In this document: piece by piece, positions 6,282-30,465 of the stretch
Numbering within the stretch: the first letter of the stretch is position 1
Layout: every line of letters starts with the position of its first letter
Origin: Actinomycetota bacterium
Lineage (GTDB): Bacteria > Actinomycetota > Coriobacteriia > Anaerosomatales > SLCP01
Assembly (NCBI GenBank): GCA_037446725.1
Contig: JBBIIC010000010.1
Span: 1,114 to 65,113, forward strand
Direction: 5' to 3'
Length of the DNA stretch: 64,000 nucleotides
The notes under the pieces: model-generated
The model's input: the letters and a program-made list of their open reading frames with translations, nothing else
Database searches by the model: none
What the model was told of the DNA's origin: nothing
Program-made: the position numbers and the translations under genes

Positions 6282-7075
6282 ACGGTGACCTCCCCGGACT
6301 CGGCGGCGCGCCAGCGGCAGTACTTCTGGTGGACGTCACGGAAGTCCGCGACGCACTCAGCGCCGGCGAACGGCTCCTTGAGCAGCACGCGTACGCGCTC
6401 GCGGTCGTAGACCTCGATGACGTTGTAGCAGGGGCGCACGCGGCCGCGCAGGCGGTGCGAACACGCGGTGCCGGCGTTCACGATGAGAACGTCTTCGAGC
6501 CGCCAGACATTGGGCACGTGCTTGTGGCCGCAAAGCACAAGGTCTGTGCCGCAGTTCGATAGCACGCGCAGCAGGTCGCCGGCGTCGTAGACGATGTTAC
6601 GCTCGCGGCCCGTGCCCGGCACCGGCACGAGGTGGTGGTGCATGGCTATTACCTTGAACTCGTCGGGCTCGCCGAAGCGCTCCTCGATCCAGCGGTAACG
6701 CTCGCGGCCCACACGCCCGCTGTCGAGGTCTGGCTCGGACGAGTCAAGACCGAGCAGCCGGATACCCTCGGTGCGCACCTCGCGGCTGCGCGCCCCGAAC
6801 AGCTCGGTGAAGTGCTCGTCGCCGACGTTGCGCGAGTCGTGGTTGCCCATCAGCACGAGACGGTTCGGGCACTCGATGCGGTCGAGCAGCCGCTGGGCCT
6901 GCTTGAACTCCTGCCGAAACCCCATATCCGTCAGATCGCCGGTGACCACGACCACGTCCGGTCCCAGTTCGTTGAGCTCGTCAACCACGCGGGTGGCGAG
7001 GCTCGGTATGTGGTAACGCGAGCCGCAGTGCAGGTCCGAGATGTGCGCTATGACGAACGGCGTGCTCTCGCTCAC
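6278..7075 (-). CDS. Calcineurin-like metallophosphoesterase
   Basis: 265 aa. SDLHCG, VVVTGDLTD, GNHD, MHHH and GHKH metal-ligand motifs. GTG start with GGAGG 7 nt upstream. 4-nt overlap with cpgS. Confidence 0.85.
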   Translation of the reverse strand: MSESTPFVIAHISDLHCGSRYHIPSLATRVVDELNELGPDVVVVTGDLTDMGFRQEFKQAQRLLDRIECPNRLVLMGNHDSRNVGDEHFTELFGARSREVRTEGIRLLGLDSSEPDLDSGRVGRERYRWIEERFGEPDEFKVIAMHHHLVPVPGTGRERNIVYDAGDLLRVLSNCGTDLVLCGHKHVPNVWRLEDVLIVNAGTACSHRLRGRVRPCYNVIEVYDRERVRVLLKEPFAGAECVADFRDVHQKYCRWRAAESGEVTV

Positions 7076-8188: not shown

Positions 8189-9109
8189 TCAGAGCAGCGT
8201 GGCGCCCGCACGCTCGATGCCGAGTGCGAGCGGGACGCGGCGTCCGGCGAGAGCGGCGACGCGCTCCCGCGCGCGCGATGCGACCTGCTCGGCCCGCGCT
8301 AACGCATCGGCGTCGTCGGCCCCGCTGACCAGACCGATGACCGTGGGCCCCGCCCCGGAGAGAACCGCGCCTGTCACCCCGGCGTCCACGAGCGCCTCGC
8401 GCACGTCGCCAAGGTCGACGACCGCCCGCGCGCGGTACGGTTCATGGATACGGTCGGAGAGCCCCGCCGCTATCGCTGCGGCGTCGCCGAGCGCGATCCC
8501 GGCGGCCAGCAACCCCGCCCGGCCGGCGCTGAACGCGGCATCCGCGTGCGGAACTGTGTCGGGAAGCAGGTTGCGCGAGGCCGTCGTCGCCAGAGGCGCG
8601 TCGGAGCCGACCACCACGGCCGCGAGCCCCGCGCCGGGCTCGACGCGCACGCACCGGGGCACGCCGTCAGACCAGCAGACCGTGAAGCCCCCGAAGAGCG
8701 CCGCGGCCGCATTGTCAGGATGTCCCTCGATCTCGCTGGCGAGTTCGAGCGCCGACTGCCGGTCCAGTCCCGCGCCCACGAGTGAGTCCGCAAGAAGTAT
8801 CCCGCCAACGGCAGCAGCCGCTGAGGAGCCGAGGCCCGCACCGGGCGGGATGCGGTTCTCGCAGCGCAGTCGGGCCGCCTGACCCGGCTGGCCTGCAGCG
8901 TCGAACACGCGCGCCATCGCCCGGGCGACACGGTTGGCGGGACCGGTGGACAACCGGCCCGCTCCCTCACCCGAGACCTCGACCGACCACTCGTCCGCCA
9001 GCTCGGCGGTGAAGCGGTTGTGCAGCGCGAGCGCAAGGCCGAAAGAGTCGAACCCCGATCCGAGGTTCGCGCTGGTCGCCGGTACCGAGACGCTGACCTG
9101 TGCGGGCAC
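8189..9109 (-). CDS. thrB: Homoserine kinase
   Basis: 306 aa. PATSANLGSGFDSFGLAL and GLGSSAAA GHMP-kinase motifs. GTG start 5 nt after the hom stop. Confidence 0.93.
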   Translation of the reverse strand: MPAQVSVSVPATSANLGSGFDSFGLALALHNRFTAELADEWSVEVSGEGAGRLSTGPANRVARAMARVFDAAGQPGQAARLRCENRIPPGAGLGSSAAAAVGGILLADSLVGAGLDRQSALELASEIEGHPDNAAAALFGGFTVCWSDGVPRCVRVEPGAGLAAVVVGSDAPLATTASRNLLPDTVPHADAAFSAGRAGLLAAGIALGDAAAIAAGLSDRIHEPYRARAVVDLGDVREALVDAGVTGAVLSGAGPTVIGLVSGADDADALARAEQVASRARERVAALAGRRVPLALGIERAGATLL

Positions 9110-9114
9110 GGCAG

Positions 9115-10401
9115 CTAGAGGTCCTCGACACGCAGGACGGTCTCGACGGACTCCAGGACGTCGAGCGCCTCGATCTCGGCGAGTGCGGACCGCACCGCCC
9201 GCTCAGTGGCGCGGTGGGTCACGTAGACGATCTCGGCTACCGGCTCGTCGGCCGACTTCTGGATGACGCTTGCGAGCGACACGCTGTGATCGCCGAAGAC
9301 CGAAGCGACCCGGCCGAGCACGCCCGGTTGGTCGGCGACGCGCAACCGCAGGTAGTACGGGGTCTCGAGGTCGCCGATGTCGCGAATGGGCAGCTGATCG
9401 TTGCACGTGCACCCCACGAGCCCGAGGCAGCCCCGGCTGATGTGGCGCGCCACCTCGATGACGTCGCCGACGACCGCGCTCGCCGCGGGAAGCGAACCAG
9501 CGCCCTCCCCGAAGAACATCGTCTCGCCGACAGCGTCGCCGATGACGTAGATCGCGTTGTAGACGCCGTTGACACTGGCGAGTGGATGCGACGCGCGGAT
9601 CATCGTCGGGTGCACGCGGATGTCGATGCCGCCCGGCGTCCGGCGCGCGATGGCGAGCAGTTTGACCGCATACCCCATCTCGGCCGCATACGCGATGTCG
9701 GAGGCGGACAGGGTGCGGATGCCCTCGGCGGGCACCTGGTCCATGACCACCCGGCTGTTGAACGCGATCGAGGCGAGGATGGCGATCTTGGCGGCCGCGT
9801 CGAGCCCGTCGACGTCGGCGGTCGGGTCGGCCTCCGCGAAGCCCTTTGCCTGCGCCTCGGCCAGCGCCTCGTCATAGCCCAGACCGTCCTCGGTCATGCG
9901 GGTGAGCATGTAGTTGGTCGTCCCGTTGACGATGCCCATCACGCTCGTGACCTCGTTGGAGACCAGGCAGTGCTTGAGCGGACTGATGATGGGGATGCCC
10001 CCACCGACGCTCGCCTCGAACGCGATGTCCACGCCGTGTGCCGCCGCAGTGTCCATGACCTCCTGGCCGTGCGCGGCCATGAGGGCCTTGTTCGCGGTGA
10101 CCACGCTCTTGCCGGCCTTCAGGGCCGAGAGCACTACGTCGCGGGCCACGCCGGTGCCGCCGATGAGCTCGATCACGACGTCGAGCGCGGGGTCGTTGAC
10201 GAGCTCGAACGCGTCGGTGGTGAACGATCCCTCGGGTAGGCCGAGTTCGGCGGCCCGTCCGGCGTCGCGGTCGGCGAACCGGGCGAGTGCGATGTCCACC
10301 CCGGCTCTCGTGCGGAAGTCCGCAGCATGCCGGCTGAAGATGTCTACGACGCCCGAGCCGACCGTTCCGAGGCCGACGAGGCCGACCTTCACGGTTTGCA
10401 T
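9115..10401 (-). CDS. hom: Homoserine dehydrogenase with C-terminal ACT domain
   Basis: Track ORF 9115..10443. VGLVGLGTVGSG Rossmann motif, and an ACT-like YYLRLRVADQPGVLGRVASVFG. I prefer the ATG at 10401 (MQTVKVG), preceded by GGAGGAATGTC. Confidence 0.93.
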   Translation of the reverse strand: MQTVKVGLVGLGTVGSGVVDIFSRHAADFRTRAGVDIALARFADRDAGRAAELGLPEGSFTTDAFELVNDPALDVVIELIGGTGVARDVVLSALKAGKSVVTANKALMAAHGQEVMDTAAAHGVDIAFEASVGGGIPIISPLKHCLVSNEVTSVMGIVNGTTNYMLTRMTEDGLGYDEALAEAQAKGFAEADPTADVDGLDAAAKIAILASIAFNSRVVMDQVPAEGIRTLSASDIAYAAEMGYAVKLLAIARRTPGGIDIRVHPTMIRASHPLASVNGVYNAIYVIGDAVGETMFFGEGAGSLPAASAVVGDVIEVARHISRGCLGLVGCTCNDQLPIRDIGDLETPYYLRLRVADQPGVLGRVASVFGDHSVSLASVIQKSADEPVAEIVYVTHRATERAVRSALAEIEALDVLESVETVLRVEDL

Positions 10402-10428
10402 GACATTCCTCCGCGCCTCTCGCAGGTC

Positions 10429-10513
10429 TGACCGGTCAGCCACCGGTCAGAGCGTATTGTACCCGAGTCCCGGCCCCCGACCGGCCCGCGCGGTGGTCAG
10501 AGAACGGTCAGAG
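10429..10513. repeat. Two pairs of 11-bp-phased direct repeats (ACCGGTCAG x2; GGTCAGAG x2) in the hom / island divergent intergenic region
   Basis: ACCGGTCAG at 10431-10439 and 10442-10450. GGTCAGAG at 10445-10452, 10495-10502 and 10506-10513. The palindrome TGACCGGTCA at 10429-10438 overlaps the first copy. Confidence 0.6.
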
Positions 10514-10572
10514 CCGGTTTGCGTCGCTGTGGATACTGGTGCACGAACGTTTGTTCGATGAGAGGGGTCGGG

Positions 10573-11220
10573 ATGGAACTGAAACGGAGCCTCGTGAGGA
10601 GCACGGCGGCAGTCGTGGCGATCGCGCTCGGCGCCACGCTGCCCGCTGCCGCCTTCGCCGCGTACAAGATGGTGCCGACGACGTGCACGAGCAGCTGCGC
10701 CAAACAGCAGACCACCTACTGGTGTGGCCCGGCGAGCACGCACTTCGTACTGCACTCGCAGGGAAGGAGCGTGACGCAGTCGACGCTCGCGAAGGAACTC
10801 GGGACCACGACCAGTGGTACGGCCATCGAGAGGATTCCCGCGATCCTCAACAAGTACAAGCGGGTCACCATCAAGTACGTGCACGTTCCTCGCACTTACA
10901 TAACCGGGATCGCACTCGTACGCAGCATCATCACTTACGCGGTCGACAGGAACTCGTGCGCCATCCCCTGCGTCAACCCGTACCCATACACCAACAGCGC
11001 GGGATACTACTCCCCCGGTTTGCCCACCTACAGTGGCAGCAAGGCGGGCGGACACTACGTCGTCATGCGCGGCTACGACATCTCGTCCACGAGCGACTAC
11101 GTGTACTACTTCGATCCGCACTACGATGCGACCCACTACGGCACCCACCGGGCGACCGTGAGCGCGATGGCCCGTTCGATCCTGGTGAAGAACTATGGCA
11201 GCCAGGGCGTCGTGTACTGA
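10573..11220 (+). CDS. Secreted papain-fold cysteine peptidase, C39-like (Peptidase_C39_2-type)
   Basis: Track ORF 10519..11220. I prefer the ATG at 10573 (MELKRSLVRSTAAVVAIALGATLPAAAFA signal peptide). YWCGPAS (Cys nucleophile context) and GGHYVVMRGYD...YYFDP (His context). Sampled lines are 55-60% GC, against about 80% in the next gene. Confidence 0.65.
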   Translation: MELKRSLVRSTAAVVAIALGATLPAAAFAAYKMVPTTCTSSCAKQQTTYWCGPASTHFVLHSQGRSVTQSTLAKELGTTTSGTAIERIPAILNKYKRVTIKYVHVPRTYITGIALVRSIITYAVDRNSCAIPCVNPYPYTNSAGYYSPGLPTYSGSKAGGHYVVMRGYDISSTSDYVYYFDPHYDATHYGTHRATVSAMARSILVKNYGSQGVVY

Positions 11221-12133
11221 GGGGAGCGCCGCGCGGCAAGCGCGGCCGCGGTCTGCCTGGCTGCTTTGCACGCTGGGCATGGCCTGGGGCCACGCGGCGC
11301 TCGGTGCGCTCGTCCTGGCCACGTCGGCGCTCGAGCCGGGGTGGGGCGGTTGGGCAGGAAGCCGTGCGATCGGTCTGCTGGCGTGGTCGGCGCTGTTGCC
11401 TGCAAGTATCGGCGTGGCGCTCGCCACCCTCACCGACGACCCGCTCGCGGCTGTACGCGGCTCCGGCCTGCCGTGGTACGCGCTTCCCGCGCCCGCCCTC
11501 GTCGGAGCGGCACTGCTGCTCGGATGGGCGACCCTCGCGCGGCGTGGGAGCCTGTGCCGCCGCGTGGCTCGAGCCGGCCTGGCGTGCGCAGTTCTGACCG
11601 CGATCCTCTCTGGCGTCGGCGTTCTGGGCGCCGCGGCACGGGAGCGTTCGGCCGAGCGACTGTTCCTCCGCATGACCTCGGGAGACGACCCGCCGTGGCA
11701 GGTGCCGGCTGCCCGGGCGACCGCCCGCGAGCTCGCCGGGCGTTACCCGGAGACCCGGTGGGCGTCGGAGGCATGGCGCGTCCTGGCACTCGACGCGGAG
11801 CTGCGCGGTGCCCCGGCTGACGCGGCTCGCGCGTGGCGCGGATTCGAGCGGTGTTTCGCCGACTATGAGCTGCCGGGCCGTGCACTGGCCGCGCTCGGTC
11901 TCGCCCGGGCACTCGACGGACGAGTGCCCGCTGACGAGCTGACCGCGCGCTACCTGGCCGCCCGCCACGGCATCGCCCGGGCGGGGCCGGACACCCAGTC
12001 CTGGATCGCACTTCGCGCAGCGGTCGACCTGGCCCGGCTCGCCCGACAGGGCTCCCTGTACGCGACCGCCTCCTACTGGGAGTCCAGAACGACCGCACCT
12101 GACGAGCACGCACCGACCCGAGATGGAGGATGA
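11195..12133 (+). CDS. Polytopic membrane protein with helical-repeat (TPR-like) C-terminal domain, unknown function
   Basis: 312 aa. About four hydrophobic segments in the N-terminal half, and an Ala/Arg/Leu-rich helical C-terminal half. The start is uncertain (11195 overlaps the upstream gene by 26 nt; the alternative ATG at 11279 lacks a clear SD). Confidence 0.5.
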   Translation: MAARASCTEGSAARQARPRSAWLLCTLGMAWGHAALGALVLATSALEPGWGGWAGSRAIGLLAWSALLPASIGVALATLTDDPLAAVRGSGLPWYALPAPALVGAALLLGWATLARRGSLCRRVARAGLACAVLTAILSGVGVLGAAARERSAERLFLRMTSGDDPPWQVPAARATARELAGRYPETRWASEAWRVLALDAELRGAPADAARAWRGFERCFADYELPGRALAALGLARALDGRVPADELTARYLAARHGIARAGPDTQSWIALRAAVDLARLARQGSLYATASYWESRTTAPDEHAPTRDGG

Positions 12134-12138
12134 GGACG

Positions 12139-13248
12139 ATGACCCGATCACAGGTGAGCACGCGGACACTGGCTGCGATGGTATGCACCGTCATGGTCGC
12201 CGGCATGCTGTTGGCGCTCCCCTCGTACCAGGACCGTTCCGCTCGAGCTCACGCCGATGAGGTCCGCAGTGACATCGCCCGCTCGTATCGCGACGCGCGG
12301 AGCTGGCGGGCGCACGTCGAGGAGCGGGAGCTCGTCAGCGAAGGGGTGTACCGCACGATCCGCTACCAGATCGTCGTCGCGGGTCCCGAACGATACCGTG
12401 TGGAGGCCGTCGAGCGGGACGAGCGCGGGCGGGAGGTGACGGCCGTGACCATCCGGGACGGTTCGACCGTCTACTCGTCCACACGGACCGAGGGGGAGGC
12501 CGCACGCGTGCTCGAGGTCCGCAACGTGCCCCCGACCCTCGCTGCGGTCACCGACAACGTCCTCGGCCAGCGCGTCCGCGACATCGCCCGCGCTACCTCG
12601 GCGCGCTATGTAGGCCGCGAGAACGTGCGGGGGCGCTCCGCGCTCAAACTCGCCATCGAACCGGGGCACGTCGTGTGGGTCGACGGTGAGTCCTCAATCC
12701 CGGTGCGCGAGCAGCTGCTCGCAGCCGACACCGTGACGCACGAACTCGAAGTGCTTTCGTTCGAACCGGACGCGGCCATCGAGCCGGCGGCGTTCGACAG
12801 GCCTTACCCCATGGGTGACCTCCACACCGTGGAGGATCTCGGCTTCAGGCCTGCAGCACCGTCCTCCGCGCCTTCCTCGCTCCTCGGCTTCGTGCCGCGT
12901 GCCATCGTACCGCCTGCCGGCTGGTCGCTCGTCGAATCGGGCTACACGGTACCCGGGGCCCACGGCGAGGCGGCCCCCGCCATGCCCGCGTGGATCGAGC
13001 GGTACGACACACCCGAAGGCCCGATGCTCGTGACGCAGTCGAAGGGACTCAAGAGCGACGAGCCGTTCGAGTCGGCCGGCGACGGCACCGACGGGCCGGA
13101 GTTCGCCAAGATCGACGGACGGACGGTCGCCTACTTCGCCGACGAATGGAGGACCCATGCAACGATTCAGGTCGAAGACGTGCTCGTGGTCATCGAGGGC
13201 CTTATGGGACCGGACACCCTGCTGCCCGCCGTCGGCCATGTGCGCTAG
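12139..13248 (+). CDS. Membrane-anchored LolA/RseB-fold-like protein with DUF4367-like C-terminal domain
   Basis: Track ORF 12130..13248. GGAGG at 12125-12129 fits the in-frame ATG at 12139 (MTRSQVSTRTLAAMVCTVMVAGMLLAL). The domain call rests on general resemblance only. Confidence 0.45.
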   Translation: MTRSQVSTRTLAAMVCTVMVAGMLLALPSYQDRSARAHADEVRSDIARSYRDARSWRAHVEERELVSEGVYRTIRYQIVVAGPERYRVEAVERDERGREVTAVTIRDGSTVYSSTRTEGEAARVLEVRNVPPTLAAVTDNVLGQRVRDIARATSARYVGRENVRGRSALKLAIEPGHVVWVDGESSIPVREQLLAADTVTHELEVLSFEPDAAIEPAAFDRPYPMGDLHTVEDLGFRPAAPSSAPSSLLGFVPRAIVPPAGWSLVESGYTVPGAHGEAAPAMPAWIERYDTPEGPMLVTQSKGLKSDEPFESAGDGTDGPEFAKIDGRTVAYFADEWRTHATIQVEDVLVVIEGLMGPDTLLPAVGHVR

Positions 13249-14164
13249 GCGCACGCACGGGCGCGGGAATCCGCCCCGCGCCATCATCGCGCTGCTCGCG
13301 CTCGCCCTCGCGGCGGTGGGCGTGGGGTGCGCGAACGGGGGGCCGCAGGGGCAGGACAGCGCGCCGGAGGCAACCAGGGCACCGGCCGCTCCGGATATCC
13401 TCGCCGACCTCGAGGGACTGAGCTTCGTGCGCGATGGCTCGATATGGACCATCGAGGACAGCGCAGAACGTCTGGTCGCCGACGGAGTGGACCCCTGGTC
13501 GCTCCGGTCCTCGCGAAGTGGTGACGCGGTGACCTGGGTCTCGCTCGACGGCCCGCACGCCCGGTTCGAGACGGCGGCCACCGGTGACTGGAGACCCGAG
13601 ACCCTTTGGGAGACCGATCTCGGCTCGCTCGTTGGGGAGGCGATGCATGACGATGTCGAAGACGTGCTCTGGCTCACAGTGAGCGGAGAGCAGACGAGCA
13701 CCGTCGGGTTCGCGGACCTCGCGCAGGATACCGAGGGCACCCTCGCACTGCCGGTGGATGCGGGGGGCTCCTTCTGCCTCGACCACCAGACGAACGCGCT
13801 GATCGTCGTGGGTGCCGCCCAACAGCCGGCCACACTCTGGCGGCTTACCGAGGGTGCACACGCCCTCTTCGAAGCGGCGACGCTCTTCACCCCGCGCTGT
13901 TCGCCTGACGGATCTCGTGTCGCCGTGACCGGAAGCGCACGCGCCGGTGACGAGCTCCGGCTGTGGGTCATCGACGTGACGAGCGGCTCGGCGACGCAGA
14001 TAGATACGGGAACCGCGACGCCCACCGACCCCGCGTGGTCGCCCGACGGCCTGCGACTCGCATTCCGCGACGCCCGGACCGGCACGGTGTGGACTACGCT
14101 CGCGCAGGGCGGGCGGGCATCCGACACGGGCCTGCAAGCGGATGAAGGGGGGCTTGCCTGGTAG
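13238..14164 (+). CDS. Lipoprotein with TolB-like (PD40/WD40-like) beta-propeller repeats
   Basis: Track ORF 13157..14164. The ATG at 13238 gives MCARRTHGRGNPPRAIIALLALALAAVGVGC (lipobox). Repeated motifs of the CSPDGSRVAV and AWSPDGLRLAF type. Confidence 0.6.
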   Translation: MCARRTHGRGNPPRAIIALLALALAAVGVGCANGGPQGQDSAPEATRAPAAPDILADLEGLSFVRDGSIWTIEDSAERLVADGVDPWSLRSSRSGDAVTWVSLDGPHARFETAATGDWRPETLWETDLGSLVGEAMHDDVEDVLWLTVSGEQTSTVGFADLAQDTEGTLALPVDAGGSFCLDHQTNALIVVGAAQQPATLWRLTEGAHALFEAATLFTPRCSPDGSRVAVTGSARAGDELRLWVIDVTSGSATQIDTGTATPTDPAWSPDGLRLAFRDARTGTVWTTLAQGGRASDTGLQADEGGLAW

Positions 14165-14169
14165 CGCCG

Positions 14170-14907
14170 ATGAGCGCCGCTGTGACACGATGCATCCACA
14201 CGCAGGGCCTCCGGCACCACAGAGAGGGGCAAGCCGCGACTGTGGCCACGCTCACCGGGATAGCGCCGTTTGTCATAGCCGGCTCGATACTGCCGACCTG
14301 GACGATCCTGGTGATCGCCCTGCTCGGGACAGCCCGTCCGGTCGCCAACGCCTTCTTCTTCATACTGGGCAACGCGACATTTCGTACCGTGCTCGGGCTG
14401 GCGGTGCTCTTCGTCCTGCCGCTGCCGGACAGTGAGAGCTTCAGACTGGACTCCGGTGCATGGGATGCCCGGTTGGTCATCGCGATCGGCCTTGGCCTCG
14501 TGCTCCTTGCCGCGTGGCTCTGGACGCGCCGTGCCACGCAAGAAGGCCCGAGCTGGGTCGAGCGTGCCGAGAACATCCGACCGCGCACCGCATTCCTCAC
14601 CGGGGCGGTCGTTACCGCGTCACCTGGAGTCCAGTACGCCTACCTGCTCGGGGGCCTTGCTGTGATACTCGAGACCACCTCGAGCCGCGTCGGCGAAGTG
14701 GTCGCGCTCGTCTTGTTCGCGCTCGCGCTCCAGTGGATGCTCGCGCTCCCGATCGTGATCTACCTGCTGTTCCCCGCCCAGTCCGCCCGCGTGCTCGAGC
14801 GCATGAAGGCCTGGCTCGGCGCGTACGGCCAACGCCTTGTTGCCGGAGTCCTCGGCGCGGCGGGTGCCTACGTCACGTACACGGGCATCGTGCAGCTGCT
14901 CGGCTGA
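14170..14907 (+). CDS. Polytopic membrane protein (GAP/LysE-like, about 6 TM by eye)
   Basis: 245 aa, very hydrophobic (IAPFVIAGSILPTWTILVIALLG, LVIAIGLGLVLLAAWLW and others). The family assignment is tentative. Confidence 0.45.
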   Translation: MSAAVTRCIHTQGLRHHREGQAATVATLTGIAPFVIAGSILPTWTILVIALLGTARPVANAFFFILGNATFRTVLGLAVLFVLPLPDSESFRLDSGAWDARLVIAIGLGLVLLAAWLWTRRATQEGPSWVERAENIRPRTAFLTGAVVTASPGVQYAYLLGGLAVILETTSSRVGEVVALVLFALALQWMLALPIVIYLLFPAQSARVLERMKAWLGAYGQRLVAGVLGAAGAYVTYTGIVQLLG

Positions 14908-14923
14908 GCGCAGCGGACACCGC

Positions 14924-15424
14924 TTAGAACATGTCCCCGATCCCCGCGTCGAGGCCGACGGTCGCCGACACCGAGGTGCTGCCGCCCGGCTCCGCCCGGA
15001 CCGTGATCACCGACTGCGCCCCGGCACCCTTCGAGAGGTAGAGCGCGACACCCCACCCGCTCCCGTCCTCGAGCGGCTCCTCGCGGTCGAGTACCCAGTT
15101 GGCCCCCGCGTACGCCCGGCGGTACCACTCCGCGACCGACTCGGCCGGCTCTGTGGACCGAAGGTCATAGCCCCACAGCGTTCCCGGCGTGACCTCCTGG
15201 GTCGAGAGCACCTTCGCATCGTAGACGGGGACCTGGAACGGGAAGCCCTCGGCGAGCTCGGCTGTCTTGCGCTCGGTCGACATGGCTTGTGCGGGCACGT
15301 CGACAGCCGGGCGCTCCCCGGCGGTACCGTCGCCCGGCACCGTGCGCCCGCACCCCGCGGACACGACGATGGCAACCGCCAGGACGGCTGGGAGGAACGC
15401 AGCAAAGGGCACGCGCCGAAGCAC
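14924..15424 (-). CDS. Small lipoprotein, unknown function
   Basis: In-frame 3' part of track ORF 14924..15907. GTG at 15424 gives MLRRVPFAAFLPAVLAVAIVVSAGC (lipobox), 5 nt after the lysA stop. The upstream 161 codons of the tracked ORF overlap lysA and are rejected. Confidence 0.55.
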   Translation of the reverse strand: MLRRVPFAAFLPAVLAVAIVVSAGCGRTVPGDGTAGERPAVDVPAQAMSTERKTAELAEGFPFQVPVYDAKVLSTQEVTPGTLWGYDLRSTEPAESVAEWYRRAYAGANWVLDREEPLEDGSGWGVALYLSKGAGAQSVITVRAEPGGSTSVSATVGLDAGIGDMF

Positions 15425-15429
15425 CTCCG

Positions 15430-16797
15430 CTATCCCTCCAGCACGTCGTTGCGCATGAGGTCGTCGTAGCTCTCCCGCCTGATGACCCAGCGCCACGTCC
15501 CGTCGCGCACGAAGACCACACCCGGGCGAACCTGCTTGTTGTAGTTGCTCGCCATCGACTGGCAGTAGGCGCCGGTCGCGCAGACGCAGAGTACGTCGCC
15601 GGGCTCGGGGCACTGCAGCGGCGCGTCGTTCACGACGATGTCGCCGCTCTCGCAGTGCTTGCCCGCGACCGTGGCCACCATCTCGCGCGGCTGGTCGGCC
15701 TTGTTGGCAAGCAGCGCCTCGTAGTGCGCGTCGTAGAGCGAGGTCCGGATGTTGTCGGACATACCACCGTCGACCGCCACGTAGGTGCGGATGTCCGGGA
15801 TCTCCTTGATAGACCCGACCGTGTACAACGTCACGCCCGCGTTCGCGACGATCGAACGGCCCGGCTCGACCGCCATCCTCGGCACCGCGAGGCCGTGCTT
15901 CTCGCACTCCTCCTTGATGCCGTCGACGACAACCTTGCCGAAGTCCTTCACGGTGGACGGCTCGTCGGGCGCGCCGTAGGCCACACCGAGCCCGCCTCCG
16001 ACGTCGAGCATACGCACTGCCTGTCCGGTCTCGCTCTCGATCTCGCGCATGAACGCGACGATCACCTCGATCGCCCGCGCGAAGCTGTGGAGCGCGAATA
16101 TCTGCGAACCGATGTGCATGTGCAGGCCCTCGAACTCGATCCCCTCAAGCTCGATGGCGCGCCTGACCGCCTCCATCGCGAGTCCCTGGTTCAGGCCGAA
16201 CCCGAACTTCGAGTCCTCGGCACCGGTCATGATGAAGTCGTGGGTGTCAGCCTCCACGCCGGGCGTCACACGGATGAGGACCTTCTGCGTCTGGCCGCGC
16301 GCAGAGGCCAGCGCCGACAGGCGCTCCATCTCCTCGAAATTGTCGACCACGATGCGGCCGACGCCTGCCTCGAGGCACTCGGCGAGCTCGGCCGGCGTCT
16401 TGTTGTTGCCGTGAACCTGGACGCGCTCCATCGGGAACCCGGCACGCACGGCGTAGGCGAGCTCGCCGCCCGAGGCGCAGAGCAGACAGCAGCCCTCCTC
16501 GGCGACGATGCGCACCATCTCGAGCGAGAGGAACGCCTTGCCGGCGTAGACGACGTCGACGTCGGGCCAGTGGTAGCGCGTCCAGCGCGCGTATTCGGAG
16601 AGTTGGTGCCGTATGGTCGCCTCGTCCATGACGTAGAGGGCCGTCCCCGCCTCACGCGCGAGCTCGACCGTGTCCACCCCGCCGATCCACAGGTGCCCGT
16701 CTCGCACTTCGGCCGTCATGGGAAGCACCGGCGCGAGGTCGGCGGCGGTCTTGCGGTCCGGCACCGCGGGCGGCCGCGGCGTGCTGGGCTTGCCCAT
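15430..16797 (-). CDS. lysA: Diaminopimelate decarboxylase
   Basis: 455 aa. PLP-dependent Orn/DAP decarboxylase motifs (YAGKAF, HIGSQI, CESGD). GGAGG lies 5 nt upstream of the ATG. Confidence 0.95.
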   Translation of the reverse strand: MGKPSTPRPPAVPDRKTAADLAPVLPMTAEVRDGHLWIGGVDTVELAREAGTALYVMDEATIRHQLSEYARWTRYHWPDVDVVYAGKAFLSLEMVRIVAEEGCCLLCASGGELAYAVRAGFPMERVQVHGNNKTPAELAECLEAGVGRIVVDNFEEMERLSALASARGQTQKVLIRVTPGVEADTHDFIMTGAEDSKFGFGLNQGLAMEAVRRAIELEGIEFEGLHMHIGSQIFALHSFARAIEVIVAFMREIESETGQAVRMLDVGGGLGVAYGAPDEPSTVKDFGKVVVDGIKEECEKHGLAVPRMAVEPGRSIVANAGVTLYTVGSIKEIPDIRTYVAVDGGMSDNIRTSLYDAHYEALLANKADQPREMVATVAGKHCESGDIVVNDAPLQCPEPGDVLCVCATGAYCQSMASNYNKQVRPGVVFVRDGTWRWVIRRESYDDLMRNDVLEG

Positions 16798-16806
16798 GGG
16801 TTCCTC

Positions 16807-18519
16807 CTACATCCGTTCCGGAGCGGTCACGCCGACGAGCCCGAGTACCGTCGCCAGAGCGATGCGCGTCGCATCGACCGCGTACAGGCGCGCGGCGGTC
16901 AGCTCCGGCTCGTCCGGGTCGACCACACGGCACTGCGTGTAGAACTGGTGGAACGACGCCGCGAGGTCCTCCGCGTAGCGCGTCAGCTTGTTGGGCGCGA
17001 GCTGGCGCGCGGCCACCTCCACCACGTCGGCGAGCTCCGCGAGCTTGCGCATGAGCGCGAGTTCGGTATCGCCGGACAGCAGGCCAAGCGGTGCGTCGTC
17101 GCGCACGAGGTCGGCGGCGGTTGCCGCGATGTCCACGCTCGTGTCGGCGGTGTGGGCGCCGGCCGCCTTGCGCAGGATCGCGCAGATGCGCGCATGCGCG
17201 TACTGCACGTAGTAGACAGGGTTGTCGCTCGACTGCTCCTTGGCGAGGGCGATGTCGAAGTCGAGCGCCTGGTCGGTCGAGCGGCGCAGGAAGAAGTAGC
17301 GCGCCGCGTCCGGGCCGACCTCGTCGAGCAGGTCTTCGAACGTCACCATCTCGCCCGTGCGCTTGCTCATCCGCACGACCTCGCCCCCGCGAAAGAGGTT
17401 CACGAGCTGGCCGATCACCACCGTGAGCTTGCCTTCGTGCCCGAGAGCGGCCACCGCGGCCTCCATCCGCTTCACGTAGCCGTGATGGTCCGCACCCCAG
17501 ATGTCGATGACCCGGTCGAAGCCGCGGTCGTACTTGTCGGCATGGTAGGCGATGTCGGCAGCGAAGTAGGTGTAGGACCCGTCGGCCTTACGCAGAACGC
17601 GGTCCTTGTCGTCACCGAACTCCGTCGAGCGGAACCACAGCGCACCCTCGTGCTCGTAGAGGTGGCCGGCTGCGGCGAGCCGGGCGAAGGCCCGCTCGAT
17701 GGCGCTCGGTGCGCCGTCGGGACCGGGCTCGTGCAGTGTGCGCTCGGAGAACCAGACATCGAAGTCCACGCCCATACCGTGCAGCACCTGATCGAGGTGT
17801 GCCAGCACCTGCACGTAGGCCTTCTCGCGGAAGTGGGCCTCACGCTTCGCGGGCTCGGCTTCGGCCCACACGTCACCCTCTGCCTCGTGGATCTCGCGCG
17901 CGATCTCGACGATGTACGCGCCCCGGTACCCCTCCTCGGGGAACTCGACCTCCCGGCCGCAGAGCTCCAGATAGCGCGCGGCGACCGAGCGGGCGAACAC
18001 GTCCATCTGCACACCCTGGTCGTTGATGTAGAACTCGCGCCGGACGTCCCAGCCCGCGTGGTCGAGCACGCGGGCCATGCTGTCGCCGAGTGCGGCCCAC
18101 CGGCCGTGACCCACGTGCATCGGGCCCACGGGGTTCGCCGAGACGAACTCGACCTGCACCTTGCGCCCGGCGCCCTCGTCGACGCAACCGAAGCCCGCGC
18201 CCGCCGTCCGCGCCTCGACGAGCACCCGCTGCAGAGCGTGGGCCGAGAGGCGCAGGTTGATGAAGCCCGGGCCGGCGACCTCGACCGCAGCCACGTCGTC
18301 GTGCCCGCTCATCCGCGCCGCGATCGCCTCGGCGAGCGCGCGCGGGTTCATCCCGGCCGCCTTGGCCGAGACCATAGCGACGTTGGTCGCCCAGTCGCCG
18401 TGCGCGGGGTCGCGCGGACGCTCGACCCGGACCTCCGGCGTCTCGGCGAGGCTCACCTCGCCAGCCTCGATGGCGGCGGCGAGCGCGTCACGTACGAGCG
18501 CGGCGGCGAGTTCTCTCAC
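16807..18519 (-). CDS. argS: Arginine--tRNA ligase
   Basis: 570 aa. Class I HVGH and MSKRTG (KMSKS-like) motifs. GTG start with GAGGAG 9 nt upstream. Confidence 0.95.
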   Translation of the reverse strand: MRELAAALVRDALAAAIEAGEVSLAETPEVRVERPRDPAHGDWATNVAMVSAKAAGMNPRALAEAIAARMSGHDDVAAVEVAGPGFINLRLSAHALQRVLVEARTAGAGFGCVDEGAGRKVQVEFVSANPVGPMHVGHGRWAALGDSMARVLDHAGWDVRREFYINDQGVQMDVFARSVAARYLELCGREVEFPEEGYRGAYIVEIAREIHEAEGDVWAEAEPAKREAHFREKAYVQVLAHLDQVLHGMGVDFDVWFSERTLHEPGPDGAPSAIERAFARLAAAGHLYEHEGALWFRSTEFGDDKDRVLRKADGSYTYFAADIAYHADKYDRGFDRVIDIWGADHHGYVKRMEAAVAALGHEGKLTVVIGQLVNLFRGGEVVRMSKRTGEMVTFEDLLDEVGPDAARYFFLRRSTDQALDFDIALAKEQSSDNPVYYVQYAHARICAILRKAAGAHTADTSVDIAATAADLVRDDAPLGLLSGDTELALMRKLAELADVVEVAARQLAPNKLTRYAEDLAASFHQFYTQCRVVDPDEPELTAARLYAVDATRIALATVLGLVGVTAPERM

Positions 18520-30389: not shown

Positions 30390-30465
30390 TGGAGCCGACG
30401 AGGGGACTCGAACCCCTGACCTACGCATTACGAGTGCGTTGCTCTACCAGCTGAGCTACGTCGGC
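30390..30465 (-). tRNA. tRNA-Thr (anticodon CGT), CCA encoded
   Basis: Minus strand: GCCGACG TA GCTC AGCTGGTA GAGC A ACGCA CT-CGT-AA TGCGT AGGTC AGGGG TTCGAGT CCCCT CGTCGGC T CCA. This is a complete cloverleaf read by eye. Confidence 0.92.

Follow-up and report, generated by a model that had tools for sequence, protein, structure and literature searches.

A secreted lysin-like C39_2 peptidase encoded with membrane-linked partners in uncultured Coriobacteriia: a candidate gated cell-wall hydrolase

In a 64,000-nucleotide (nt) stretch of an Actinomycetota genome (Coriobacteriia, Anaerosomatales; contig JBBIIC010000010.1), hereafter the window, five plus-strand open reading frames (ORFs) at 10573-14907, named g1 to g5, are followed by a minus-strand neighbor, g6, at 14924-15424. 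The five ORFs have coding-type GC content at third codon positions (GC3, 0.80-0.87). A GC3-based gene map assigns about 40 supported genes to the rest of the window, all on the minus strand; it bears out, over all 64 kb, the plus-strand island amid minus-strand genes described in an earlier sequence-only reading, and g1-g5 is the sole head-on block on it. The conserved unit is g1-g2-g3, usually with g4; g5 and g6 are add-ons. We propose that the g1 product may be a secreted peptidoglycan peptidase that its partners hold and gate at the membrane. The locus is arranged as follows.

9115-10443, minus strand: hom, which flanks g1.
10444-10572, between the divergent hom and g1: intergenic region with a ribosome-binding-like motif, GAGAGGGG, just 5' of the g1 ATG.
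10573-11220, plus strand: g1, 215 amino acids (aa), Peptidase_C39_2 protein with a predicted signal peptide.
11195-12133, plus strand: g2, 312-aa polytopic membrane protein with a TPR-like C-domain.
12139-13248, plus strand: g3, 369-aa (372 aa from the alternative ATG at 12130) RseB/MucB-like LolA-fold protein.
13238-14164, plus strand: g4, 308-aa PD40 beta-propeller lipoprotein.
14242-14907, plus strand: g5, 221-aa SfLAP/Gap-Sap membrane protein.
14924-15424, minus strand: g6, 166-aa small lipoprotein.
15430-16797, minus strand: lysA, which flanks g6.

The product types foreseen in the sequence-only reading largely match what the analysis returns: g1 a peptidase, g2 a membrane protein with a helical-repeat domain, g3 RseB-like, g4 a TolB-like lipoprotein, g5 polytopic, and g6 a convergent lipoprotein. 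Predicted signals and transmembrane (TM) segments likewise agree that every product of the block is exported or membrane-bound. The label of unknown function holds in part: g2, g3 and g6 fall below family cut-offs, whereas g5 has a family (SfLAP/Gap-Sap), g1 is lysin-like, and g3 has an RseB architecture.

The first four genes are tightly packed. g1 and g2 overlap by 26 nt (11195/11220), g3 and g4 by 11 nt (13238/13248), and g2 stops at 12133, with g3 starting at either 12130 or 12139; the latter start is the most likely because a Met is invariant there and a GGAGGA motif lies upstream. The g1-g4 junctions, all overlapping or 5 nt apart, are those of translationally coupled genes. The tight spacing reported from the letters alone thus stands at 11195/11220, 12130-12139/12133 and 13238/13248. 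At 14164/14170 it does not, a 77-nt gap between g4 and g5 being likelier: g5 probably begins at the GTG at 14242, with the ATG at 14170 an unlikely alternative, because its orthologues keep the N-terminus only from that GTG, at (M/V)xT..IAPF. Independent gene calls use 14242 too, and 5' of this GTG lies GAGAGGGG, the motif found before the g1 start; the two purine-rich copies are at 10560-10572 (g1) and 14220-14241 (short form of g5). Region 10444-10572 presumably holds the promoter of the g1 block. A promoter/terminator scan gave nothing useful, and a search of 10444-10572 for the sigma-70 consensus found no site, a result that is uninformative for a high-GC actinobacterium.

The extent of the conserved unit follows from a profile search of one genome per GTDB species and from a metagenome scan; both rest on short conserved patterns and can miss divergent clades. 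Orthologues of g1 with at least 49% identity occur in 11 GTDB species, all uncultured Coriobacteriia (two are labelled 'Eubacteriales' in records) and none represented by a cultured strain. The carriers are uncultured Gram-positive subsurface actinobacteria, relatives of OPB41/Anaerosomatales. All 11 encode g1-g2-g3-g4 in this order, and the metagenome loci long enough to show them have at least g1-g3, colinear. The g1-based metagenome scan returned the same two clades and no new one. Identical (100%) g1 copies are present in one NCBI record and one metagenome contig. Beyond the 11 species, g1 identity is about 31% or less, in other phyla, and distant C39_2 proteins (L022-L027, L037-L047) have no g2-g4 nearby.

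Profile hidden Markov models of g1-g6, run on all loci, resolve the content of each. In clade A (g1 identity 72-100%) the module always lies between hom and lysA; it consists of the core only in L015, of the core and g5 in L011, L013 and L016, and of the core, g5 and g6 in the window, L002 and L012. In clade B (g1 identity 47-53%) the neighborhood is different, and g1-g4 only are followed by a convergent aminotransferase gene and an arginine deiminase gene. g4 is missing from two clade-B metagenome loci, L033 (near position 6880) and L035 (near 10630), in which g3 directly meets the convergent aminotransferase gene. g5 is confined to some clade-A genomes, with L015 and the whole of clade B lacking it; g6 accompanies the module in genome-scan loci L012 and L014 (= L002) only, and also in metagenome loci L001 and L029. 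The five-gene unit of the sequence-only reading therefore gives way, as does any five- or six-gene operon, to a core of g1-g3 plus g4: clade B and one clade-A genome lack g5, and g6 is found in fewer loci yet. The conserved co-occurrence on which that reading depended is nonetheless present for g1-g3, and for g4 in most loci.

The four core proteins evolve at different rates: identity to clade-A and clade-B orthologues is 76% and 49% for g1, and 45-51% and 28-37% for g2-g4. The fast divergence of g2-g4, together with the failure of g2, g3 and g6 to reach curated family cut-offs, would suit a block that is no functional unit, in which unrelated genes for exported proteins are adjacent by chance. 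We regard this as very unlikely: the g1-g2-g3(-g4) order and the overlaps are kept in two clades that share about 50% g1 identity and lie in different neighborhoods.

Several loci depart from the common pattern. In L017 g3 and g4 form one 658-aa ORF (9619-11592). As evidence of interaction this fusion was rejected because unrelated residues stand in place of the normal end of g3 and g4 retains a signal peptide and lipobox of its own; it is probably a frameshift, perhaps an assembly error. On a 550-kb metagenome contig (L009, 10001-13611) the g1, g2, g3 and g4 frames are split, as in a pseudogenised copy or an error-rich assembly. A 58-aa ORF, MDVKQQVIDAMKAAGEPLNAGKIAEMTGL..., is conserved just upstream of the module in L004 (9602-9778), L005 (2176-2352) and L009 (9554-9730) and lies one gene further away in L010 (8409-8585); the window has no homologue. 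This clade-B ORF was rejected as a precursor peptide: its sequence looks like that of a small winged-helix DNA-binding protein, which could be a regulator. Genes for a YkuD L,D-transpeptidase, a PASTA-domain protein and an Acyl_transf_3 protein lie less than 10 kb from the module in clade-B neighborhoods (L006 3766-4770, L004 17792-19036), not consistently placed.

The g1 product, a predicted papain-fold cysteine peptidase, matches Pfam PF13529, Peptidase_C39_2, over the whole model (positions 7-143 of 143; 47.1 bits against a cut-off of 24, E 4.6e-12) and carries a predicted Sec signal peptide ending ...AAAFA/AY. In an alignment of 27 sequences Q45, C51 and H161 are invariant, and D181 is Asp in 26 of the 27, with Glu in the distant P0049; by these residues g1 is predicted to be an intact hydrolase. 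Its orthologues end in a nearly invariant ...GSQGVVY (window 11200-11220), which could be a docking or sorting signal.

The annotated relatives of g1 are phage lysins. It matches three PHROG endolysin families (E 2e-13 to 1e-8), and a tblastn search of 50,697 phage genomes matched 417 actinophage records; the matches listed all fall under Lysin A/endolysin genes, of Mycobacterium, Gordonia and Rhodococcus phages, with one RefSeq copy labelled chitinase. The similarity, about 35% identity over g1 residues 41-189, is to the N-terminal domain of Lysin A: e.g., g1 matches residues 10-161 of the 551-aa LysA of Beezoo (gp30; BLASTP E 5e-17), with the catalytic Gln, Cys, His and Asp aligned. The N5 domain of LysA is a C39-like cysteine protease (Payne and Hatfull, 2012; PMC3314691). 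In a contig of a Corynebacterium metagenome-assembled genome (L024, 2-1552) a C39_2 domain is fused to a GH25 muramidase and a C-terminal tail, an endolysin-like arrangement. By contrast, g1 is a 215-aa single domain in which no wall-binding, glycosidase or amidase domain was found, and no phage gene, holin or LysB stands beside it in the loci of either clade, where its neighbors are hom, lysA and g2-g4. A sequence search of solved structures returned spurious matches to Kelch designs and marginal ones only. g1 is a C39_2 member, not a classical C39 peptidase, and not an endolysin in the modular or phage sense.

Classical C39 peptidases remove double-glycine leaders, and g1 could in principle do so for a secreted peptide or bacteriocin. 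A weak match to Peptidase_C39 (PF03412), confined to residues 42-103, speaks for this role, as does the Gln-x5-Cys spacing of g1, which we take to be that of the ComA peptidase domain. The match, however, is below the cut-off (21.0 bits against 22), and g1 is a free secreted protein with a signal peptide, not the cytoplasmic N-domain of an ABC exporter. Neither clade has an ABC transporter or precursor-peptide gene in the module; the clade-B 58-aa ORF, judged by its sequence, is winged-helix-like and not precursor-like. Leader removal is scarcely credible here.

The peptidase gene was also described as compositionally distinct, from hand counts of 55% and 60% GC within it and 82% in g2. The counts are exact on recount (55%, 60%, 81.7%), and the low GC is real across equal-sized windows: g1 has 62.7% GC, against 67.9% for the whole window, and falls in the lowest 1% of 648-bp windows. 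Separate origin does not follow. GC at the three codon positions of g1 is 0.49, 0.52 and 0.866, the last as high as in hom, lysA and g2-g6; because GC3 is native and the first two codon positions carry the whole deficit, amino-acid content explains the low GC, and we reject a foreign origin of g1. The protein is rich in Tyr, Thr, Ser, Lys, Asn and Ile, and its content of F, Y, I, N, K and M is 24.7%, against 5-19% in the other products. The g2 product is 50% G, A, R and P, which exaggerates the contrast between g1 and g2.

g2 has three or four N-terminal TM segments, from hydropathy, and, at the C-terminus, a conserved domain of helical hairpins, about 150 aa long and TPR-like. Its conserved motifs are SRWASEAWRV, W..F...F.D...PG and QSWIA..AA..LAR; orthologues occur in both clades at 27-66% identity, and the MAARAS start is kept in clade A. 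The AlphaFold2 (AF2) model is poor overall (predicted local distance difference test, pLDDT, 61.8) because just three homologues served as input, with pLDDT of 74-93 over approximately residues 140-260. No Pfam or NCBIfam family matches g2, and Foldseek returns weak matches to generic TPR proteins (E at least 0.02). Hardly any cytoplasmic domain precedes the TM segments at its N-terminus, and in L010 there is none. An Arg-rich loop before the last TM segment, assigned by hand, suggests that the C-domain faces outward.

The AF2 model of g3 (pLDDT 86.8) shows a TM helix at the N-terminus and two beta domains, the first LolA-like and the C-terminal one DUF4367-like. The 13 best Foldseek matches in the PDB are RseB/MucB (E about 1e-14), over both domains and about 345 columns; LolA, LprG, VioE and ependymin-related proteins follow, over the N-domain. 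At the sequence level the signal is faint: the Pfam family MucB_RseB (PF03888) scores 14.2 bits, below its cut-off of 22.3, and a profile search of PDB sequences finds RseB at E 0.14. As modeled, then, g3 has the RseB fold, yet it fails the family model and lacks sigma and anti-sigma partners. An exhaustive profile search of 1.84 billion representatives yields 21 relatives, 11 of them close. LolA_like and DUF4367 both occur in remote relatives (P0086, P0091-P0094), and neither is above threshold in g3 itself. The loci of remote relatives P0086, P0088 and P0092 have no C39 peptidase nearby, and therefore the module does not extend to them. Two remote relatives (L051 182-1360, L052 141-1520) lie downstream of secreted repeat proteins with an AEGYTG...AERSS signature and no Pfam family, and small lipoprotein genes come after two (L050, L051).

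g4 has a predicted lipobox, ...VGVG/C, which five orthologues keep, and matches Pfam PD40 with 25 bits (cut-off 20.9). The match to the TolB model TIGR02800 reaches 43.3 bits (cut-off 343) and covers propeller blades only; weak NCBIfam matches are to Atxe2 and Dpp5. Most g4 orthologues end in Trp (...GGLAW, ...GSVTW, ...GPISW; window 14150-14164), which could be a docking or sorting signal.

The fold of g3 and the propeller of g4 invite a reading in which g1 is a true protease that acts on an exported protein, in regulated envelope proteolysis or maturation: g3 would act like RseB, answering an envelope signal and shielding or exposing the cleavage site, and g4 would help to present the substrate, perhaps a lipoprotein, a surface or pilus protein, or the part of g2 outside the membrane. 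In its favor, g3 is matched best, across its two domains, by RseB/MucB, propellers of the PD40 type often control peptide access in peptidases (compare the weak g4 matches to Atxe2 and Dpp5), C39-clan enzymes are classically proteases, and the g1-g4 genes are tightly coupled. On the other hand, no sigma or anti-sigma gene lies in or beside the module in either clade, g2, with almost nothing of a cytoplasmic N-domain, would leave no inward signal carrier, and the annotated g1 relatives among the matches listed are all wall lysins. We consider envelope proteolysis somewhat unlikely, if well short of negligible.

g5 is a clear member of Pfam SfLAP (PF11139; 105.1 bits against a cut-off of 35, E 4.5e-30, model positions 12-212 of 213). 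Since Sap modulates sulfolipid-1 transport in Mycobacterium tuberculosis (PMC3318749), and since lipid-binding folds of the LolA, LprG and VioE type match the g3 N-domain, the locus might instead handle lipids, glycolipids or lipoproteins: g3 would carry a lipid like LprG/LppX, g5 would move it, g4 would be a scaffold, and g1 would process a lipoprotein or acylated substrate. Such a role is decidedly improbable. All of clade B and one clade-A genome do without g5; the module holds no MmpL, polyketide synthase, acyltransferase or LolCDE-type gene, and no glycolipid genes (MmpL, Pks, Pap) are found in the flanks of the loci. The order's cultured members are Gram-positive in wall type, with no outer membrane, and lipid handling leaves no role for the lysin-like peptidase, the best-conserved member.

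g6 has a predicted lipobox (VSAG/C) and no Pfam, NCBIfam, PHROG or PADLOC match. It converges on g5, 16 nt away, and on the minus strand it follows lysA after 5 nt; it is probably part of the argS-lysA transcription unit, not of the conserved module. In clade A the module interrupts argS-lysA-hom-thrB, a classical actinobacterial cluster (window 8189-10443 / 15430-18519), in which thrB follows hom directly, with no thrC in between. A single RNA gene was detected in the window, for tRNA-Thr (CGT), at 30390-30465 on the minus strand. No paralogues occur within the window, and a defence-system search (PADLOC) gave no match.

What is observed at the locus, i.e., conserved gene order, export signals, folds, intact catalytic residues and similarity to a lysin domain, is best accommodated, in our view, by a secreted peptidoglycan peptidase that is held and gated at the membrane by tethered partners. 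This reading is drawn by analogy with known hydrolase regulators, and we give it somewhat less than an even chance. g1 would be exported via Sec as a bare C39_2/Lysin-A-N5-type catalytic domain and would most likely cleave peptide bonds of peptidoglycan, in stem peptides or cross-links, as an autolysin for wall growth, turnover or cell separation. Tethering is proposed because g1 has no wall-binding domain of its own: three co-translated, non-enzymatic partners (g2 with its TPR-like domain, the RseB-like g3 and the propeller lipoprotein g4) would keep g1 in a physical complex on the outside of the membrane, and there gate it or switch it on. We infer the direction of this regulation, and the external position of the g2 C-domain on which it would depend. 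g5 and g6 would be later neighbors, not core parts.

Two precedents shape the proposal. RseB gates protease access to RseA, and thereby its proteolysis. The LolA-like lipoprotein GerS allosterically activates the amidase CwlD, and SsdC of Bacillus subtilis is a GerS orthologue with the LolA-like plus DUF4367 architecture (bioRxiv 10.1101/2025.01.13.632879). Cultured Anaerosomatales have a Gram-positive type of wall and form no spores (PMC9686372). With such a wall and no outer membrane, the classical roles of LolA and TolB are excluded, and these folds must serve another task; of the envelope processing or sorting that the sequence-only reading preferred to metabolism, an extracytoplasmic set headed by a C39-like peptidase remains, and sorting falls away (PMC9686372).

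Synteny in two clades with unrelated genomic contexts argues for a gated wall peptidase, and the rates of evolution, slow for g1 and fast for g2-g4, fit an enzyme with adaptable partners. Other points weigh against it. The peptidoglycan specificity of N5 is itself a bioinformatic assignment (PMC3314691). C39_2 is a broad family that includes uncharacterised cellular members, and 35% identity does not fix the substrate. Inside the module, neither a wall-binding domain nor a further gene for wall synthesis is present. Most Coriobacteriia lack the module, so that it cannot be part of core growth. The case for a complex and for regulation is one of analogy, the g2 model is weak (pLDDT as above), its topology was worked out by hand, and g4 is dispensable in two lineages.

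A bolder version, which we think distinctly unlikely, would make the core a previously undescribed four-protein machine with which very thin monoderm actinobacteria control the cutting of their wall. A domesticated peptidase of the phage-lysin type would stay latent at the membrane until licensed by an RseB-like sensor that answers a lipid or wall intermediate, with the TolB-like propeller and the TPR scaffold assisting; RseB itself responds to lipopolysaccharide. Such a machine, if real, would be a Gram-positive counterpart that joins RseB surveillance with wall-remodelling coordination of the Tol-Pal type.

Secreted wall hydrolases are dangerous to the cell that produces them, and to our knowledge their restraint in monoderms is known for few systems (FtsEX-type activation, GerS-CwlD). 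If the gated-peptidase reading is right, the module would add a third design of wall-hydrolase control, in which a lysin-like cysteine peptidase is combined with an RseB-fold protein, a propeller lipoprotein and a TPR membrane protein. In bacteria that lack an outer membrane, the LolA, RseB and TolB folds would also gain a function, and a domain that is annotated elsewhere only in actinophage endolysins would gain a cellular use. The practical importance is small: about a dozen uncultured species of one subsurface lineage carry the module. The literature found on PF13529 (a classification paper, endolysin and genome surveys) and on DUF4367 (the GerS paper) holds no description of the g1-g4 combination.

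Among known systems, Lysin A N5 is the closest to g1: both belong to the C39_2 family, with ~35% identity over the catalytic domain and the Gln, Cys, His and Asp aligned. Unlike Lysin A, g1 is chromosomal, a Sec-secreted single domain with three non-phage partners and with neither holin nor LysB as neighbor. The Gap/Sap proteins of mycobacteria share their family with g5, which is not a core component, does not lie by MmpL or Pks genes, and belongs to a host without a mycomembrane. The module loci contain no LolCDE-like genes.

In diderms, propeller and TPR proteins work with wall-remodelling enzymes, as in Tol-Pal (TolB and the TPR protein CpoB) and the NlpI-type TPR scaffolds; a propeller and a TPR protein at the wall-membrane interface resemble g4 and g2. 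No tolQRA or pal genes lie near the module, and TolB has an extra N-terminal domain, for which mature g4, at about 280 aa, seems too short. RseB/MucB, a regulator of envelope-protease access, shares the two-domain fold of g3. RseB is a soluble periplasmic protein, whereas g3 is membrane-anchored in a monoderm host; at no locus is there a sigma-E-type sigma factor or an RseA/MucA-like anti-sigma within 10 kb of the module, or a DegS-type protease.

A functional parallel is offered by GerS-CwlD (C. difficile) and SsdC (B. subtilis), likewise in monoderms: a LolA-fold protein tethered to the membrane shares its locus with a wall hydrolase or acts upon one. The LolA_like plus DUF4367 architecture of SsdC is common to the remote g3 relatives, a likeness seen in architecture; GerS is not among the 50 Foldseek matches listed for g3. 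The systems differ in enzyme (a zinc amidase there, a cysteine peptidase here), in anchor (a lipid for GerS, a TM helix for g3) and in host, which here is non-spore-forming. Each part of the module belongs to a known fold or family, and nothing in it is categorically new: what the locus would encode is a variation on the hydrolase with a LolA-fold regulator, confined to one narrow uncultured lineage.

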